From an uncultured archaeon (GTDB taxonomy: Archaea > Asgardarchaeota > Lokiarchaeia > Sigyniarchaeales > SOKP01), in contig CAZALK010000019.1 of the NCBI GenBank assembly GCA_964486045.1, positions 1 through 64,000 of the forward strand: a stretch of DNA of 64,000 nucleotides, given 5' to 3'. Positions 55 to 7,946 of the stretch are shown one piece after another. The notes below the pieces were generated by a model. It was not told the origin of the DNA. It saw only the letters and a list, made by a program, of their open reading frames with translations, and did not search any database. The translations under genes and the position numbers were made by a program. Position 1 is the first letter of the stretch. The number at the start of each line of letters is the position of its first letter.

Positions 55-141
55 ATGACCAGAAAAGAGAAAAAAGATATAAAAAAAGTTAAGAAAACAT
101 TTGCAGGGTATAATCCCGTAATCCAAAATTATATTAGGTAA
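55..141 (+). CDS. putative 28-aa basic peptide MTRKEKKDIKKVKKTFAGYNPVIQNYIR (5' context lost)
   Basis: ATG..TAA read manually and followed by a T-rich tract. Below the ORF-track cutoff and adjacent to the adapter junction. Confidence 0.3.
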   Translation: MTRKEKKDIKKVKKTFAGYNPVIQNYIR

Positions 142-229: not shown

Positions 230-305
230 CTCTATTTTTCTTTAATTTTTGTTTTACTCGTTTCTTTAATTCATTCTATTTGAAGGGTGATTTTAGGGAA
301 ACATT

Positions 306-355
306 AAGGTCTCTAAATAAATAAAATGACTAAAGATCATTTATTTAGAGACCTT
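306..355. repeat. 17-bp perfect inverted repeat AAGGTCTCTAAATAAAT-N16-ATTTATTTAGAGACCTT upstream of a Rab-like gene
   Basis: Arms 306-322 and 339-355 are exact reverse complements. Confidence 0.85.
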
Positions 356-436
356 CTAAACTAAAATTTTAAATTGCTAAAATTATACTCATTCATTAAG
401 CAAAATATGATCATCTGATTTCCTTAAATAACCTAA

Positions 437-988
437 ATGAGCGATCCTCAAAAATTTAGATTTAAGATAACAGTCATCGGTGATGGCCAAGTAGGTAAAA
501 CCTCCTTGATTAAAAAATTTACTCAAGGTTCTTTTGTTCAAGATTATGTGAAGACTTTAGGAGCACAATTTTCTAAATTTGATAAAGAAATAGAAGGTGA
601 TGAAACGAGATTGATTTTCTGGGATATAGCCGGTCAAGATGATTTTCGTTTTTTACTCCCTACTTTTTATAGAGAAAGTAATGCAGCAATTATTGTTTAT
701 AGTCTTGAGGAAAATAATCTTGGAAAGCAAAGTTTTGAGCATGTATCAAATTGGTATGAAAATATCAAAAAATTTTGCGGGGACATTCCAATGATTCTAT
801 TTGGCAATAAAGTCGATTTAATTGAGGAAGATGATCTCGACAATCCTAATGCTAAAGATTTTGTAGAGACAGAGGGGTTTCTTGGTTATTATTTAACCTC
901 AGCAAAAACAGGACAACGAGTTCATGATGCTTTTAATACAATAATAAATGAATTATATTACAAATCCAAGCTTTTATCAGAAATATAA
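437..988 (+). CDS. Rab-like small GTPase (Ras superfamily)
   Basis: G1 GDGQVGKT, G2 TLG, G3 WDIAGQ, G4 NKVD, G5 TSAK. No C-terminal prenylation Cys. Confidence 0.95.
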   Translation: MSDPQKFRFKITVIGDGQVGKTSLIKKFTQGSFVQDYVKTLGAQFSKFDKEIEGDETRLIFWDIAGQDDFRFLLPTFYRESNAAIIVYSLEENNLGKQSFEHVSNWYENIKKFCGDIPMILFGNKVDLIEEDDLDNPNAKDFVETEGFLGYYLTSAKTGQRVHDAFNTIINELYYKSKLLSEI

Positions 989-1019: not shown

Positions 1020-3512
1020 TTAAAAATCGGCTTCCATTTCAGCAATCTCTGCTAAGAAGAGCTCAGCAATTGTCAGCCAATTTCGTTTAGTATCAAGATC
1101 ACAATAACATTTGTTTGTAAATTCCTTTCCTTTACTAAGGTTTTCGATAGCTGAATCTTGATCATCCATTTCTTTATAACATATTCCTAATTTAATATAA
1201 GTTTGATTAATATACCACTCATTGTTATCTAGTTCTATGGCCTTTTGGAATTCGCGAATAGCTTGTTCATATTCCTCAAAATTCATTAAAATCTCCCCAT
1301 AAGTATCATGGAATATTCCGTTTTTTGGTTCATGTTTGATTAGATCTGTTATAATTTCTATGACATTTTCTTTTTTATCTAAATATTGTAACCAATAAAT
1401 TTTATTTAGCATAAGATTGTTATCGCCTGGATATTTATCAATTAATTCGTTAATGATTTCTAATCCCCCTTCAATGTCTTTCTTTTCTTTAAGAATATAG
1501 GCCTTTTTTATTTTTAGGTTCCTTTCACCCTCGGGAAATTCTTCAAGTAAATTATCTAAAATATCAAGAATTTCATCGAACTTATCAAAATAAATTAGAA
1601 TTCTATTTTTTGAATTATAGAAATCAAGATTTTTAGGACTAAATGCAATAGCACGATTAATTGATTCGAGAGCTTCTTCATAATTATTTGATTCCAGCAA
1701 AAATTGGCTTTTTAATTGATAGTACCTTGCTTTATTGGAATCGTTGGGATCTAGATCAATAGCTTTATCTATTTCGATTAGTCCATCTTCTCTATCTGAA
1801 ACAAACTCATATATTTGATTATAACCATTTATTAAAGCCTTTAGAGCGTGAGAAAGAGGGTGATCGGGAAAAAATTTCTGCTCTTTTTCGACTATATCAA
1901 AAACTTTTTCATATTCTCCAAGTGTCATTGAAGAAAATCCCAATATAAAGAAATATAGAGCGTATAACGGATTTTCTTTATCAACTTGAGAAGCTTTTAT
2001 ATGCTTATTAAGAAATTCTACTGATTCATTATTACGGTTTAAATTAGAGAGAATCATTGCATGGTAAATAACCAGATCTAAATCTTTCTTACCAGACTTA
2101 ATAACTGAATTGACAAGATCTAATGCAGTACCATATTTTTTTTCATCTAAAGACTGATTAATCTTCTTGTAGACTGAATCTGGTTTTAAAGCCAAATAAG
2201 GTCGTAAAACTTCTAATATATCTGTTTCCAAATAATAATTCATTTTATTGTCACCTATAAATTGATATCGAGAGGTTGTAGAAAGACCCTCCTGTAATAT
2301 TTCAGGGATGTTCTGCCAAATTATGCCTTCTAACCTACTAGGAATACCTGATAATTTCTTTTCTTTTTCTATTTTAAATGCCAAATAATTAATATACTCA
2401 GGCAAAAACTTTAGTAATGATTTTTTCAGCTCCTCGGGGAAAACAAATTGACAAGCTTCTTCCAAAATCGCATTAACGGTAGATTTCATGTCAAGAGGAA
2501 GAATTAAATTTGATGAACTTTCAAATAGTTTATTTAAATATGTGAATTTTGTAATGTGTTCTTCTGTAATAACTCGAAGCATCATTTCTATTTTCTCATC
2601 TGATTGAAAATAGTAAACCTTGTCTTGAGGAGCCTCTAATTTGAAAAATTTTATTGTATAGATTTGATTTTCAATAATTTCATCAATATAGTAATCAAGA
2701 GTAGTTTTTTTAATTTGGTATTTTCCTGAAAATTCTTCAGGAAAAATGTAGTTTGGATACATGGTTGGGTGATTAATTGAAAGAAAAAGTAAAATTTTAT
2801 GAAAATCTTCCTCATTCCTTAAGACATTTTTAATTTTTGAATATTCTAATTTTAAAACACTATTGAGGAATCTAAATTGAATATTTCTTTCTTTTATATC
2901 AAAGTCTTTAAAAAATTTGAGCGTTTTTTGAGTTAATTCTGTAATCCGCTTGCTTTCTTCTTCTAATATTGATTGTCTGTCTAAATCATAAAACTTTAAC
3001 ATGTTAGAATATTCGGATTTACCGGTTTGAGTTATCTTATATTCTTTTTCATCTTTTCTTACGAAATTTTTCTTTAGTAAATCATTTAAATTTTTTGATA
3101 ATGAGGATTGATTAATTGACAAAGGCTTTTCAAGAAAATCTGCCCATTTGCAATAATTATTATTATAAACCATCCATAGAATCCAGTGATCATAATTTCT
3201 ATGAGCAAGTATTACTTTTGGGGGATAACTTAATTTCCTTCCCCCTCTTTTATTTTGTCCTAATTCATAATACCTTTCACGTCCCTTAGTAGTTATGAGA
3301 TAGTGATTGAATTCACTTTTTAAAATATAACCATCGCGTTTAAGTTTATTTAAATATATAGATAAGGTTGATCGATTTACTTTTTCTTTTAAATCTGACC
3401 AAGAACATACTTTATTATTACTTAATATCCAAAGTATAACATACTCCCAGTTGGGTTTGCCAACAATCGGGCTTAAAATCTCTTCAGGGGGGTAATTAAC
3501 CGTTGATTCCAA
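1020..3512 (-). CDS. multi winged-helix (MarR/ArsR-like x2-3) plus C-terminal TPR putative transcription regulator
   Basis: Two homologous N-terminal units (YPP..IL..ILW...N..C.W.D...N.S.LS..LN.L....I..Y.IT..G), a third HTH-like unit (IKKTTLDYYIDEI), then TPR helices (YEEALESINRAIAFSP, YEQAIREFQKAIELD). Confidence 0.8.
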   Translation of the reverse strand: MESTVNYPPEEILSPIVGKPNWEYVILWILSNNKVCSWSDLKEKVNRSTLSIYLNKLKRDGYILKSEFNHYLITTKGRERYYELGQNKRGGRKLSYPPKVILAHRNYDHWILWMVYNNNYCKWADFLEKPLSINQSSLSKNLNDLLKKNFVRKDEKEYKITQTGKSEYSNMLKFYDLDRQSILEEESKRITELTQKTLKFFKDFDIKERNIQFRFLNSVLKLEYSKIKNVLRNEEDFHKILLFLSINHPTMYPNYIFPEEFSGKYQIKKTTLDYYIDEIIENQIYTIKFFKLEAPQDKVYYFQSDEKIEMMLRVITEEHITKFTYLNKLFESSSNLILPLDMKSTVNAILEEACQFVFPEELKKSLLKFLPEYINYLAFKIEKEKKLSGIPSRLEGIIWQNIPEILQEGLSTTSRYQFIGDNKMNYYLETDILEVLRPYLALKPDSVYKKINQSLDEKKYGTALDLVNSVIKSGKKDLDLVIYHAMILSNLNRNNESVEFLNKHIKASQVDKENPLYALYFFILGFSSMTLGEYEKVFDIVEKEQKFFPDHPLSHALKALINGYNQIYEFVSDREDGLIEIDKAIDLDPNDSNKARYYQLKSQFLLESNNYEEALESINRAIAFSPKNLDFYNSKNRILIYFDKFDEILDILDNLLEEFPEGERNLKIKKAYILKEKKDIEGGLEIINELIDKYPGDNNLMLNKIYWLQYLDKKENVIEIITDLIKHEPKNGIFHDTYGEILMNFEEYEQAIREFQKAIELDNNEWYINQTYIKLGICYKEMDDQDSAIENLSKGKEFTNKCYCDLDTKRNWLTIAELFLAEIAEMEADF

Positions 3513-3586
3513 AATTCTTCCATTATAAAACTGTTGCTATTATGTAAATATTAAGTAGGTTTATATATATATTTTTTGATTTGAAC

Positions 3587-3628
3587 TCTAATTAGACTTC
3601 TAGAAGTATTATTTTACCTAGACATGTC
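3587..3628. promoter_or_regulatory. cluster of palindromes in the divergent intergenic region (TCTAATTAGA, ACTTCTAGAAGT, GACATGTC)
   Basis: Perfect palindromes at 3587-3596, 3596-3607 and 3621-3628. Operator role is inferred. Confidence 0.4.
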
Positions 3629-3660
3629 AAACAAGAATAAATCGTTTAAATAAGAGACTA

Positions 3661-3720
3661 TCTAAAAGAAGTCTAAGAGTCCATTCAAGGTTCCCAGAAT
3701 CAAACTTTATATAAAACCTT
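3661..3720 (+). promoter_or_regulatory. promoter copy 1: TCTA-N7-TCTAAGAxTCC box, then AAAC and TATA box (TTTATATAAA 3706-3715)
   Basis: Aligns without gaps to 4200-4259 (40/60 identities by manual count). Confidence 0.65.
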
Positions 3721-3769
3721 TCTATTATATTATTTAATTAAGTAAAAAAAATAAAAATTGCTGATAAAA

Positions 3770-3967
3770 ATGGTCCAAATATATGAAAAAGTAATGGTTG
3801 AAAAAGTCGAAAAGATTGATGAGGCTGAAAACCAAGAAGATGAATTACTTGGAGATTTGAATCCAAAATATTTTGAAGAAGCTATTCATCTAAAAGAAGC
3901 TAAGAAAAGTATTACGGCTTCAGATATTTACGCTGGCTCTAAATTCAATTTTTTTAGTGCTTTTTAA
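3770..3967 (+). CDS. small acidic protein (65 aa) with NxKYxEE motif, ending NFFSAF
   Basis: ATG at 3770 (track starts at TTG 3758), TATA box upstream, T-rich tract downstream, motif shared with 4524..4778. Confidence 0.75.
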   Translation: MVQIYEKVMVEKVEKIDEAENQEDELLGDLNPKYFEEAIHLKEAKKSITASDIYAGSKFNFFSAF

Positions 3968-4199
3968 AAGTATTAACAAATTTTTTTAATTCTTATATTT
4001 TATCTTATATTTTATATTCTCTACTTTCAACCTAATACGTACAATTATTCTTTTAAAGGTTTTTTTTTCATTTTCGTTATAAAAATTTTTCAGGAGATAA
4101 TATTAAAAAAATCTATTAGCAGTTTCAAAATTAAAACTTTTGTTAAATCTTATAAACTTAAGTAGAGTTTTACTAGTTTATTAGTTTTAAAAAGAAGGG

Positions 4200-4259
4200 T
4201 CTATAACAAATCTAAGACTCCGCGCAAACTTTTCTTAATAAAACTATATTACGATCCTT
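4200..4259 (+). promoter_or_regulatory. promoter copy 2: TCTA-N7-TCTAAGAxTCC box with identical spacing to AAAC-TATAT
   Basis: Gapless similarity to 3661-3720. ATG 4275 lies where a near-leaderless transcript would start. Confidence 0.6.
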
Positions 4260-4274
4260 GATCTAACTGATCTT

Positions 4275-4442
4275 ATGAAGAAAAAGATGGATGTGTTAAA
4301 AAAAATAGATCAGTTTTTAGTTGAAGAGTATGCTCCCATAGAACTTGAGGAACTGTATGTGATTTTAATAAAAAGTACTTCAAAACATAAACAGGAAGAT
4401 AATAAAGGTAAAGAAAACGTAGTAAAATCTGACAGAAGCTAA
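4275..4442 (+). CDS. small protein (55 aa) MKKKMDVLKKIDQFLVEEYAPIELEELYVILIKSTSKHKQEDNKGKENVVKSDRS
   Basis: Manually translated. Lies just downstream of promoter copy 2; N-terminus weakly resembles 4524..4778. Confidence 0.45.
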   Translation: MKKKMDVLKKIDQFLVEEYAPIELEELYVILIKSTSKHKQEDNKGKENVVKSDRS

Positions 4443-4523
4443 AGGACTGATTATTCCTGATTTGAAGGGAGTAATATATATGCTTTATAAATAAAATGTT
4501 GAATTAAAGGGGTGATAAAAAAA

Positions 4524-4778
4524 ATGGTTGAAGTGTTATTAAAGAAAAAGGATCTTGAGGATCTATTTGAATTAGAAGATTTTGTGATTTTAGAAGAGCT
4601 CCCCACAGTTGAAGAAGATCATGAGATGGTGAAAGTCAAGTTAGAAGAAAAACCACTCAAAAAAGCAATGCTAAAATTGTTGAAGAAAGCTAAATATAAT
4701 GCTAAATATTTGGAAGAAATGGTAGATGTGAACAAAGTTAAAAGAAACATTCATTATAGGAATTTTGGGCTTTTCTAG
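4524..4778 (+). CDS. small protein (84 aa), acidic N-terminus, NxKYxEE motif, ending NFGLF
   Basis: GGGGTGAT Shine-Dalgarno at 4509-4516 before ATG 4524; TTTATAAA at ~4483. Confidence 0.78.
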   Translation: MVEVLLKKKDLEDLFELEDFVILEELPTVEEDHEMVKVKLEEKPLKKAMLKLLKKAKYNAKYLEEMVDVNKVKRNIHYRNFGLF

Positions 4779-4794
4779 AGTTAATTTTTCCTTA

Positions 4795-4890
4795 TCAGAC
4801 TGATTTTATTCTGAGATCAGACATCAGGGAGAGATAAAATCAGGGGGAGGGGGACCTTTTCTGATCCCCCTCTTATTTTTTTTCTTTTTT
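4795..4890 (+). terminator. double-hairpin structured 3' element followed by poly-T
   Basis: CTGATTTTAT (4800-4809)/ATAAAATCAG (4834-4843); GAGGGGGA (4847-4854)/TCCCCCTC (4865-4872); T-tract follows. Confidence 0.6.
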
Positions 4891-5025: not shown

Positions 5026-5592
5026 ATGAACGATAGTGGACGCAAATTTAGGTTTAAGGTAACTGTCATTGGAGATGGAAAAGTCGGCAAAACATCCTTA
5101 ATTAAGAAATTCACTAAAGGATCTTTTAAAAAAGATTATGTAAAGACAATTGGGGCACAATTCTCAGTCTACGATGAAAATATTAACAACGATAAAATCA
5201 GATTATTGTTTTGGGATATCGCCGGTCAAGATACGTTCCACTTTTTACGACCGAATTTTTTTAAAAATAGTAGAGCAGCAATCATCGTTTATAGTCTTGA
5301 AGATAATAAATTTGGGAAGGAGAGTTTTAAACATATCTCAACTTGGTATGATGACATATCAAAATTCTGTGAAAATATCCCTTTTGTAATTTTTGGGAAT
5401 AAAGTTGATTTAGTTGATGAAGCCAAACTAGATAATTCTAAAATCCAAGAAATAATCGATGAGAAAAACTTTCTTGGTCATTACATAACCTCAGCAAAAA
5501 CTGGAAAAGGAATTCTTGACGCTTTTAATGCAATCATAGAAACCCTTTATTCTAAAATTAAATCTCTATCTGGTGAAGTAGCAATCGAGTAA
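5026..5592 (+). CDS. Rab-like small GTPase
   Basis: GDGKVGKT, TIGAQF, WDIAGQ, NKVD, TSAK. Confidence 0.95.
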   Translation: MNDSGRKFRFKVTVIGDGKVGKTSLIKKFTKGSFKKDYVKTIGAQFSVYDENINNDKIRLLFWDIAGQDTFHFLRPNFFKNSRAAIIVYSLEDNKFGKESFKHISTWYDDISKFCENIPFVIFGNKVDLVDEAKLDNSKIQEIIDEKNFLGHYITSAKTGKGILDAFNAIIETLYSKIKSLSGEVAIE

Positions 5593-5688: not shown

Positions 5689-6240
5689 ATGACTGATATC
5701 AATTACCTCTTTAAAATTGCTGTTGTTGGTGATGGAAGAGTTGGCAAAACTTCCTTAATTAAAATATTTACTCAGAGTTCTTTTGAAAAGGAGTATATCA
5801 AGACGATAGGTGCCCAATTATCTGTGTATATTGGAGAAATTGATGGAGAAAAAATTAAGTTACTATTTTGGGACATCGCAGGTCAAGACACCTTCCATTT
5901 TTTGCGACCGAATTTTTTTAAAAATAGTAAAGCAGCTATTATTGTTTACAGTCTTGAGGGAAACAAACATGGTAAACAGAGCTTTAAACATATTCAAAAT
6001 TGGCAAAATGATGTTAAAAAATATTGCGGGAATATTCCTGTAATTCTGTTTGCTAATAAAGCTGATTTATTGGATGAAAGCAAGGTAAATTATAACGAAA
6101 TTCAATCAGTAATTAACGAGAATGACTTCCTTGGATATTACATAACATCGGCAAAAACTGGGGAAGGAGTCATTAAAGCATTTTCCGCTATCATAGAAAA
6201 TTTATTTTACAAATTTAGATCATTATCTGCTGAATTATAG
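5689..6240 (+). CDS. Rab-like small GTPase (tandem paralog)
   Basis: GDGRVGKT, WDIAGQDTFHFLRPNFFKNS identical to the neighbour, NKAD, TSAK. Confidence 0.95.
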   Translation: MTDINYLFKIAVVGDGRVGKTSLIKIFTQSSFEKEYIKTIGAQLSVYIGEIDGEKIKLLFWDIAGQDTFHFLRPNFFKNSKAAIIVYSLEGNKHGKQSFKHIQNWQNDVKKYCGNIPVILFANKADLLDESKVNYNEIQSVINENDFLGYYITSAKTGEGVIKAFSAIIENLFYKFRSLSAEL

Positions 6241-6422: not shown

Positions 6423-7946
6423 ATGACTTATAAAAAAATCGCTTTTTTCAAGAGTCTCTCATTAATAGATCGAGCATTTCCCCTTAAAGTACGTGATGAT
6501 CCCAAATATGATAATCATCCCCTAATAAATAAAAAAGCGATTGATGAAGCGGTAAAAGAATATAAAAATAAAGTAGCTTATGCAACTAATAAAAATATCC
6601 CTAATGTCTCAGTCTTAAAGACAAATATTGAAGGACGCCTTTTAGCAGAAAATATTCCAGAAATTCCTTCAATTGTTATCAATGAAATATGTACTGAAGA
6701 AATAATTCGTAAAACTCTAAATAAACATGATATTTCACATATTGCATTAAGTATATACGCAACCGGAATGTATGAAACAATAAAAATAATAAAAACTATT
6801 CAAACAGAATTTAAAGACGTAGAATTATATATCGGGGGAGTTGGAACAGTATATTCCCATTTGCAAGAATTAGTAGAGCAGAAAAATACGTGTACTGGAA
6901 ATGGTATAAATTGGATGAGAGGTAAATTCAATTTAAAACCCCTTTCAAACGAGGAATTCATTATACCAAAAATATTTGGAAATTTTCCTGAATCACCAGT
7001 TCCTATGAAAACTGCTTTTTTAATAACACAGCTTGGTTGCCCAAATAATTGTGATTTTTGTATTACTCCTAATTTTCTAAAGTATAAAGCCCTTTCAAAT
7101 GGTGATAAAATAATCAGGTTTATTGAAGACCTAAGCTCAGAATCTAATAAAGATATTTTTCTTTTCATGATTGAACCAAATGCTTTTTTCCCAGAACACA
7201 CTTGGAAGAAGATTTTTAACTACTTTATCGAAAATTCGGGAAGAATTGATAATAATATTTTTATAGCTTTTGAAGGTTCACTTAATCATATAAACAAGTT
7301 TGATTTAGAAACCATTCAACGGAAATCCCCAATAAAATTTTTATTGATAAGTTATGGGATTGAAAGCACCCTTAGAGGTGGCTATCTCAAAAATCAAGGC
7401 AATCCTGAGAAAATTATAGAAAGATTAAACAAAGTTGGAATTGTTACTAAACAAAATTACATATTGGGACTACCCTTTCACACAAAGAAAAATATTGATT
7501 TAGAAATCAAAAATAATTTAAAATTTCATCCTGATCTTTATTCGGTTTATAACTTTAAACCTATTCCAGGGACTCCTTTATATAATCAGTTGAAATCAAA
7601 AAATCGTGTATACGATAAGACTTTACCTCTTGAGTTTTTATATGCATTCGGATTCCTTCCTTTCACTCATGAACATTTGGGAGGAGGATTCAACATATTG
7701 AAATATATTTTTAAAGCTATTTACGAGAATGAAAAAAGAAGCATTGATATTTATGGTAATTTCTCAAATAAACTGTTAGATTTATTTGCTCTTACAAATT
7801 CTCGCAAAATTAAATGGGCTGCGAAATCATTTATGAAAATAAATAGTTTGTACTTTAATTCTTTTCAGGCTCGAATGCCTAATAGATTAGCAACTATCTA
7901 TAAACAGAGGTTAAAATCTCTTAAACAAAAGTACAAAAATTTTTAG
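6423..7946 (+). CDS. radical SAM protein, B12-binding class-like
   Basis: GCPNNCDFC (CxxxCxxC), upstream Rossmann-like IALS..YIGG segment, GIES, ILGLP, PIPGTPLY. Confidence 0.88.
   Translation: MTYKKIAFFKSLSLIDRAFPLKVRDDPKYDNHPLINKKAIDEAVKEYKNKVAYATNKNIPNVSVLKTNIEGRLLAENIPEIPSIVINEICTEEIIRKTLNKHDISHIALSIYATGMYETIKIIKTIQTEFKDVELYIGGVGTVYSHLQELVEQKNTCTGNGINWMRGKFNLKPLSNEEFIIPKIFGNFPESPVPMKTAFLITQLGCPNNCDFCITPNFLKYKALSNGDKIIRFIEDLSSESNKDIFLFMIEPNAFFPEHTWKKIFNYFIENSGRIDNNIFIAFEGSLNHINKFDLETIQRKSPIKFLLISYGIESTLRGGYLKNQGNPEKIIERLNKVGIVTKQNYILGLPFHTKKNIDLEIKNNLKFHPDLYSVYNFKPIPGTPLYNQLKSKNRVYDKTLPLEFLYAFGFLPFTHEHLGGGFNILKYIFKAIYENEKRSIDIYGNFSNKLLDLFALTNSRKIKWAAKSFMKINSLYFNSFQARMPNRLATIYKQRLKSLKQKYKNF

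Follow-up and report, generated by a model that had tools for sequence, protein, structure and literature searches.

A predicted winged-helix/TPR transcription factor with operators at small-protein genes and a linked clade of Rab-like GTPases in Loki-type Asgard archaea

Near the start of a contig from an uncultured Loki-type Asgard archaeon, an 830-amino-acid (aa) protein that joins tandem winged helices to an array of tetratricopeptide repeats (TPRs) is encoded divergently from a cassette of very small open reading frames (ORFs), an arrangement that raises the question of which genes such a protein controls and to what it might respond. The window analysed here comprises the first 64,000 nucleotides (nt) of contig CAZALK010000019.1 (assembly GCA_964486045.1); it is AT-rich (~28% G+C) and corresponds to contig C19 of a 5.18-Mb assembly that carries the genome label G000. 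Named homologues of its proteins derive from metagenome-assembled genomes (MAGs) of Promethearchaeota/Lokiarchaeota-type Asgard archaea. The original prediction for this locus had been a peptide-responsive transcription switch; we favour, at a probability of roughly 60%, a reading in which the 830-aa protein would act on specific DNA sequences as a transcription factor and belong to a large family of Loki-type Asgard archaea (Promethearchaeota), linked to GTPases and with cognate operators at small-protein genes. The module as a whole, comprising a large regulator with predicted DNA-binding and TPR domains, a cassette encoding very small conserved proteins and a Rab-like GTPase clade of its own, is conserved, and in the literature on Asgard winged-helix/TPR proteins, small-GTPase neighbourhoods and RRNPP systems in archaea we found no paper describing it.

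The architecture of the regulator had been given as two or three tandem winged helices plus a TPR array, which is correct because Pfam detects two winged helix-turn-helix (wHTH) matches (HTH_45/MarR/HTH_34, aa 23-81 and 110-175) together with TPRs (aa 580-795), and because an AlphaFold2 (AF2) model built on 49 homologues (mean predicted local distance difference test score, pLDDT, 80) shows, in addition, a further winged-helix-like domain and TPRs that run as one continuous superhelix of ~11 repeats. In the AF2 models, each of the three winged helices folds as helix-helix-helix plus a beta-hairpin wing, and the linker that precedes the superhelix is helical and partly disordered at aa 379-421. 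The TPR part returned, as its top Foldseek matches, the superhelices of OGT, SPY, BBS4 (from the BBSome:ARL6 complex), APC/C and Tom70. The protein has the hallmarks of an unnamed Asgard family, i.e., an NYPPxEI N-terminus, three successive winged helices (wH1-wH2-wH3) and a C-terminal TPR region; there are more than 1148 homologues at E <= 1e-3, those with names coming from Asgard MAGs and annotated only as hypothetical or TPR protein. The 49 aligned homologues are 46-83% identical across their full length, and the ratio of nonsynonymous to synonymous substitution rates (dN/dS, by the Nei-Gojobori method here and below) of the regulator is 0.09-0.12.

A 33-nt operator lies ahead of small genes of the cassette and is followed at a fixed distance by the box AAACT(A/T)TATAT, such that the operator array ends ~10 bp upstream of the transcription factor B recognition element (BRE) and TATA box. 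What had been called a duplicated promoter, with its TCTA-N7-TCTA boxes, proved to be two copies of this one operator (3660-3718 and 4199-4251), each with its TATA box at the same offset, and the same operator and box recur upstream of the other paralogues of ORF1, the first gene of the cassette, where ~150 nt of upstream sequence are conserved even where coding lengths differ. A weight matrix trained on ten sites of this genome yielded 12 sites above 24 bits when scanned against the whole genome, the next best scoring 18.9: ten of them are the training sites and two are new (C13:36055 and C1:562343). Behind these 12 sites lie five ORF1-family genes, ORF2, four conserved non-coding units and two transporter-type genes, one encoding an MFS_2 transporter and the other a 132-aa protein rich in Cys, with a DUF401 permease behind it. 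Scanned against 151 kb of foreign loci, the matrix found 19 sites, all directly upstream of small-protein family genes and two per cassette, and zero sites in the loci of other regulator subfamilies. The orthologous second operator is present in G099, L048, L049, L056 and L057. Moreover, an alignment of six orthologous regulator-ORF1 spacers displays three conserved blocks amid diverged flanks, namely the regulator-side TATA box and palindrome, the repeat array, and the BRE/TATA. The palindrome, AACTCTAATTAGA(C/G)TT at window positions 3584-3599, is near-invariant across the six spacers, with a single C/G column, and occurs also in L052; as read from this alignment, it appears to share a common core, GAGT(T/C), with the direct repeats.

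The original prediction had proposed to look across Asgard genomes for a conserved association of the regulator with small ORFs and TCTA boxes, and this association was borne out: the cassette is present beside every close orthologue examined, and the operator is both conserved and specific. Divergent small-ORF cassettes accompany regulator orthologues of 62-83% identity in G099, G082, G098, G015, L048, L049, L052, L056 and L057, the foreign cassette loci having been drawn, besides the G-genomes, from two NCBI assemblies, one ENA scaffold and two close relatives. In a sample of 54 genomes of the genus, the small-protein family was found in 19; it is present in all 14 genomes whose regulator has at least 68% N-terminal identity, versus 4 of the 39 others, and in 12 of the 13 cases in which contig extent permits a judgement, the regulator gene lies next to the small-family gene. 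The pairing changes in more distant subfamilies. Beside regulators at 44-46% identity stands a divergent gene of the ORF3 type (E = 7e-7 and 2e-4), with GAACTACAA repeats at the same promoter position, and regulators at 46-52% identity, along with short forms of ~635 aa and including a paralogue at the end of contig C21, have at the operator position a palindrome, TTCGAACTTCG-N5-AAGTT, and are accompanied by tiny ORFs that encode either Lys-rich peptides of 22-28 aa ending in G(Y/F)NP...I(R/K) or a 72-aa membrane protein. This variation of operator type with regulator subfamily is our main argument that each regulator would bind the site adjacent to it.

In the favoured reading, the tandem winged helices would bind a direct repeat that occurs three times at 11-bp intervals (core AGAGT/AGACT), just upstream of the BRE/TATA of the small-protein genes, and would bind as well the palindrome built from the same half-site (AACTC-N6-GAGTT) beside the regulator's own TATA box, resulting in autoregulation. 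The placement of the repeat array just upstream of the BRE suggests that the small-protein genes are activated, probably in conjunction with this autoregulation. The predicted regulon in this genome would consist of 12 operator-bearing transcription units, with transcription expected to start ~25 nt downstream of the AAACTATATAT boxes, and the TPR superhelix would act as the input or partner-binding domain, for which candidate ligands are the small proteins, by way of their NPxY-acidic motif or aromatic tail (as intracellular feedback), and the dedicated Rab-like GTPase.

Two observations attach to the operator targets. The non-coding units form a conserved unit of ~300 nt without a long ORF, each behind a three-repeat operator and TATA box (G000:C3:102987(-), C13:12943(+), C13:36055(-) and C25:6357(+)), which contains several hairpins, including a palindrome, AAACTCTATAGAGTTT, similar to that on the regulator side; it has no Rfam match, and covariation amounts to one compensatory pair, the copies being too alike for a test. 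In addition, a 585-aa TPR_12/TPR_10 protein that lies outside the regulator family is encoded at G000:C12:247-2001, just upstream of the operator-driven MFS_2 transporter.

The three small ORFs (65, 55 and 84 aa) that had been reported as divergent from the regulator are present, ORF2 being, however, a decayed copy. Values of dN/dS are 0.09-0.33 for ORF1 and 0.13-0.26 for ORF3, which are therefore protein-coding genes under purifying selection, and are relaxed in ORF2 (0.35-0.57), which is thus decaying in the window. ORF1 belongs to a family without a Pfam entry, recognizable by LGDLNP(K/R)YFEE, and matches a profile of 15 members at E = 4e-28. These proteins consist of a leader-like conserved N-terminal part, an N-P-x-Y-x-E core that is invariant across the 15 ORF1/ORF2-type members (residues N31, P32, Y34 and E36 of ORF1), a helix with ...EAK..I, and a variable aromatic C-terminal tail. 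In a large protein collection, the same profile matches at least 420 proteins, which derive from Asgard assemblies and metagenomes and are mostly unnamed or called "hypothetical protein" and none informatively annotated. Four paralogues of ORF1 occur in this genome, on contigs C3 (73 aa), C18 (70 aa), C12 (34 aa) and C1 (34 aa). At the position of ORF2, relatives (G099, G082, L049, L056 and L057 have full-length versions) encode an 80-94-aa protein with an N-terminus like that of ORF2 and a C-terminus bearing the NP(K/R)Y motif and an aromatic tail, both of which ORF2 of the window has lost. The gene that follows in relatives encodes 70-90 aa ending in ...LHP(D/E)KFRF(G/S)LRDLK, and only a remnant of it survives in the window. 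Orthologues of ORF3, at 60-80% identity, are present in G099, G082, L048, L049, L052, L053, L056 and L057.

The motif said to be shared by two of the ORFs can indeed be read in both, as NPKYFEE in ORF1 and NAKYLEE in ORF3, but the homology that this would imply is weakly supported: profile hidden Markov models built with and without the ORF3 type gave no cross-match in the six-frame ORF set of the genome, and hhalign gave P = 0.003 over 22 columns, such that we did not adopt ORF3 as a member of the ORF1 family and keep it as a possibly distant paralogue. Matches of ORF1 in the ESM Atlas to Fic_N/DUF4172 fragments were low in features (102-122 of 256) and were treated as chance, the ESM Atlas returned nothing for ORF3, and Rfam contains no family matching the cassette. 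None of ORF1-3 has a hydrophobic N-terminal stretch (the top 12-residue hydropathy is 0.5-1.3) and the isoelectric point of ORF1 is 4.6, in agreement with the absence of signal sequences noted originally; by these properties the peptides do not appear to be of the secreted type, which accords with the early preference for an intracellular role over secreted quorum sensing. The double hairpin that had been proposed to end the cassette consists of one stem at 4784-4835 and another at 4845-4874, with a T-run behind them (-34.7 kcal/mol, z = -2.0); it is conserved in G099 and G082 and matches no Rfam family (H/ACA small nucleolar RNA model at E = 0.55).

Other small genes travel with these cassettes. 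A third family of tiny proteins, ending in (Y/L)LL(H/N)P(K/E)K(Y/F)xFGxKDL(K/H), is encoded within or just after cassettes and also after the 34-aa ORF1 paralogue on C12 (G000:C12:4203-4298, G000:C8:199043-199138, L042:576-773, L048:2116-2211 and L052:1471-1560). In several relatives, but not in the window, the ORF1-type and ORF2-type genes have between them the gene for a conserved protein of 106 aa, which Pfam does not match (L018:1895-2215, L048:3123-3443, L049:3104-3424 and L052:2359-2679).

Features of the locus, with window positions
Feature	Position	Strand	Basis or remark
28-aa Lys-rich peptide, ...AGYNPVIQNYIR	55-141	+	Part of neighbouring short-form regulator module at contig C21 end
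GTPase 1, Rab-like, convergent with regulator (31-nt gap)	437-988	+	Pfam Ras, E = 6e-42
830-aa regulator	1020-3512	-	TTG start; Pfam and AF2 models
Regulator domains: wH1 aa 22-87, wH2 aa 107-172, long helix, third wH-like domain aa 209-303, helical linker, TPR superhelix aa 430-829			AF2
Regulator-side promoter block: TATA-like TTTATATATATA and palindrome AACTCTAATTAGACTT (3584-3599), putative autoregulatory site	3560-3599		
Operator copy 1, three direct repeats with 11-bp period: ATCTAAAAGAA / GTCTAAGAGTC / CATTCAAGGTT	3660-3692	+	Regular-expression and matrix scans
BRE/TATA-like box AAACTTTATATAAAACC of ORF1 promoter	3702-3718	+	Box and offset shared by all promoters of paralogues and orthologues
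ORF1, 65 aa, acidic, LGDLNP(K/R)YFEE family, aromatic C-terminal tail	3770-3967	+	Homologues, dN/dS
Operator copy 2 (4199-4231) and TATA box (4241-4251), ahead of ORF2	4199-4251	+	Regular-expression and matrix scans
ORF2, 55 aa, truncated N-terminal remnant of 80-94-aa family member	4275-4442	+	Full-length versions in relatives
Remnant of third small gene, LIIPDLKGVIYMLYK*, 16 codons	4447-4494	+	By-eye comparison with 70-90-aa proteins of L056 and L057, no statistic
ORF3, 84 aa (KAKYNAKYLEE...NIHYRNFGLF)	4524-4778	+	Orthologues, dN/dS
Two hairpins and T-run, probable end of cassette transcript	4784-4890	+	
GTPase 2, Rab-like, downstream of cassette	5026-5592	+	Pfam Ras, E = 5e-40
GTPase 3, Rab-like, downstream of cassette	5689-6240	+	Ras-family match

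The cassette had originally been placed between Rab-like genes, and the flanking genes do belong to the Ras family (PF00071; 143.5 and 137.3 bits versus a cut-off of 21.6, with all three GTPase genes of the window matching), but they are not mere borders, since this dedicated GTPase clade is the most constant partner of the regulator family. A Ras-family gene lies at most one or two genes (within ~2.5 kb) from the regulator in 10 of 10 gene-annotated loci; the genome has 70 Ras-family matches in 5.18 Mb, and thus we estimate that ~7% of positions fall within 2.5 kb of one. GTPases 2 and 3 occupy the same position in L049, L056 and L057. In a tree of 43 Ras-like ORFs of this genome and the linked GTPases, the linked ones, including the three of the window, form one clade, except for two distant Arf/G-alpha-like neighbours. 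Being of one clade and constant neighbours, the GTPases are therefore part of the module. As an observation apart, a perfect 17-bp inverted repeat (AAGGTCTCTAAATAAAT ... ATTTATTTAGAGACCTT) lies at window positions 303-360, ~75 nt upstream of GTPase 1, for which Rfam gives only a chance-level microRNA match (E = 0.1).

At its start, the window reaches into a second module of this kind. The Lys-rich peptides of 22-28 aa (...G(Y/F/H)NP(V/A)xQ(N/S)(Y/F)(I/V)R) are encoded at window positions 55-141, at G000:C21:73937-74011 and G000:C8:198909, and in L051, L056 and L057, each gene standing behind a TTCGAACTTCG-N5-AAGTT palindrome and TATA box, divergent from a short-form or subfamily-C regulator and followed downstream by the gene of a GTPase from the linked clade. 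The gene order in relatives is short regulator, tiny peptide, GTPase, long regulator, cassette and GTPases, which indicates that C21 at its end adjoins C19 at its start. Positions 1-54 of the window consist of 27 bases, which resemble the reverse complement of the Illumina P5 adapter, followed by a poly-A run, and a long poly-A run also closes C21. Probably the two contigs are neighbours, the break between them falling within an A-tract of the 5' leader that precedes the gene for the Lys-rich peptide.

To what might the regulator respond? In a fuller version of the original prediction, the small proteins would bind the TPR groove inside the cell through their NPxY-acidic motif or aromatic tail, alter DNA binding, and thereby feed back on their own promoters. 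The divergent pairing of regulator and small ORFs is kept across subfamilies, the Tyr-acidic motif is invariant in small proteins that are under purifying selection, and TPR superhelices like those matched (OGT, Tom70, APC and BBS4) commonly bind short linear motifs. However, the conserved C-terminal TPR region is paired with unrelated tiny ORFs (the NPxY family, the Lys-rich GYNP peptides and the 72-aa membrane protein), long and short regulator forms both pair with NPxY ORFs, and no convincing natural fusion turned up, the longer proteins including one doubtful 217-aa match on a 931-nt contig; we regard such feedback as possible, if on the unlikely side. A GTPase remains constant while the type of small ORF varies among subfamilies, and is therefore at least as good a candidate for partner or target as the peptides. 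Accordingly, the TPR superhelix may instead bind the adjacent Rab-like GTPase in one nucleotide state, with the regulator reading GTPase status into transcription or serving as its effector, and with the small proteins as outputs or accessories. Constancy across the gene-annotated subfamilies, the single clade, the presence of BBS4 among the best TPR fold matches, and the 31 nt that separate the end of the GTPase 1 gene from that of the regulator all favour this coupling, but gene linkage cannot tell a target from a partner, the fold matches are generic TPR matches, and the flanks of the subfamily-B loci are too short to show whether a GTPase is there, so that we consider it doubtful. Tentatively, we also propose a Loki-type circuit that would join a transcription factor with TPRs to its dedicated Rab-like GTPase as well as to the NPxY-acidic small proteins, the TPR domain reading the GTPase state, the small proteins or both and turning this input into transcription.

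Two further accounts concern the small proteins themselves. Their leader-like conserved N-terminal part and variable aromatic tail, together with a nearby Cys-rich 507-aa ORF (6423-7946) containing a CxxxCxxC-like motif, recall ribosomally synthesized and post-translationally modified peptides: the small ORFs would be precursors processed by this radical-SAM-like enzyme, and the regulator would merely control the cluster. Yet the 507-aa ORF falls short of the Pfam threshold for Radical_SAM (E = 8e-4; 20 bits versus 29.5), relatives have other genes in its place beside the cassette, and ORF1 paralogues elsewhere adjoin unrelated metabolic genes, making this account highly improbable. We give even less credence to secreted quorum-sensing peptides that are re-imported by a true RRNPP-type mechanism, which the gene arrangement alone would favour; the small proteins are acidic, hydrophilic and without a hydrophobic N-terminal segment, Pfam finds no XRE-type HTH in the regulator, and no RRNPP structure is among the top fold matches listed.

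Several points also weigh against a sequence-specific transcription factor, the reading that we prefer. When modelled alone, the N-terminal 340 aa of the regulator gave no Foldseek match below E = 1e-3 (best E = 2.6e-3), the weak matches above this threshold being multi-winged-helix proteins, MarR/PadR regulators, SarS and NadR, and DNA binding is not universal among multi-winged-helix proteins such as RPC62, ScpB and ESCRT-II. Another factor could bind the predicted operators in place of the regulator, and no operator was seen ahead of GTPases 2 and 3. Several small-family ORFs are far from any regulator, as expected of a regulon but also of unrelated genes, and the genomes of the 54-genome comparison are related rather than independent samples, so that the comparison does not amount to a statistical test.

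If the favoured reading is true, comparative genomics alone would reveal the binding sites of this archaeal regulator family, which is rarely possible. The module supplies a defined operator with subfamily variants, 12 predicted promoters, at least 420 small proteins, and a single GTPase clade linked to a single family of transcription factors. Loki-type Asgard archaea have dozens of Ras/Rab-like GTPases, of whose regulation or function, to our knowledge, little is known, and the module offers a testable handle on the control of these eukaryote-like proteins, for which experiments could turn to cultured relatives such as Promethearchaeum, provided that these possess a member of the family. The proposed circuit, if real, would set a prokaryotic precedent in which small-GTPase signalling and the recognition of short linear motifs are coupled to gene control.

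Among known systems, the RRNPP regulators (Rap, Rgg, NprR, PlcR and PrgX, and AimR of phages) resemble the module in combining a DNA-binding domain with a TPR-type domain, in having adjacent small ORFs, and in controlling the promoter of these ORFs, as predicted for the module. The known range of RRNPP systems, as one paper gives it (PMC12700828), comprises Gram-positive bacteria and the phages of these. The module shares with them the adjacency of peptide gene and receptor gene, and differs in other respects: there is neither the N-terminal XRE-type HTH nor the three-helix bundle of Rap, Pfam giving MarR, HTH_45, HTH_34 and HVO_A0261_N and no HTH_3/XRE; judging by the hydropathy of the small proteins, these are unlikely to be pro-peptides that are secreted, processed and re-imported. 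As to the fold of the TPR part, none of the 37 matches listed (ranks 1 to 47) is an RRNPP chain, a weaker match lower down being possible. The module has three winged helices, an OGT/APC-like superhelix of ~11 repeats, small proteins of 60-90 aa without signal peptides, archaeal BRE/TATA promoters, and a constant linkage to Rab-like GTPases. The original wording, analogous to RRNPP but not necessarily homologous, is apt, in that any link to RRNPP would be one of analogy.

Regulators of the MarR, PadR and HxlR types and SarS are similar to the 830-aa protein in their Pfam wHTH matches and, in the case of SarS, in having two winged-helix domains per chain, but they are small (~110-250 aa), lack TPRs, and mostly bind palindromes as dimers, and all fold matches of the regulator to them have E > 1e-3. 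In the position of the predicted site, an archaeal parallel is offered by Ptr2 and TFB-RF1, activators that bind just upstream of the BRE; they are of unrelated protein families, and for the module we infer activation from the same placement. The geometry of the site recalls that of SARP/AfsR-type activators of Streptomyces, which possess a winged-helix domain (and, in AfsR, a C-terminal TPR), bind direct repeats of 11-bp period against the core promoter, and activate transcription. These proteins differ in their OmpR-type winged helix followed by BTAD and NB-ARC domains, in acting on bacterial sigma-70 promoters, and in having no small-ORF or GTPase partner, and no sequence or fold match to them turned up, no dedicated test having been made. 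The module belongs to the class of one-component regulators with a repeat-domain sensor, and what is new about it is the association with small-protein families and a dedicated clade of Rab-like GTPases in Asgard archaea.

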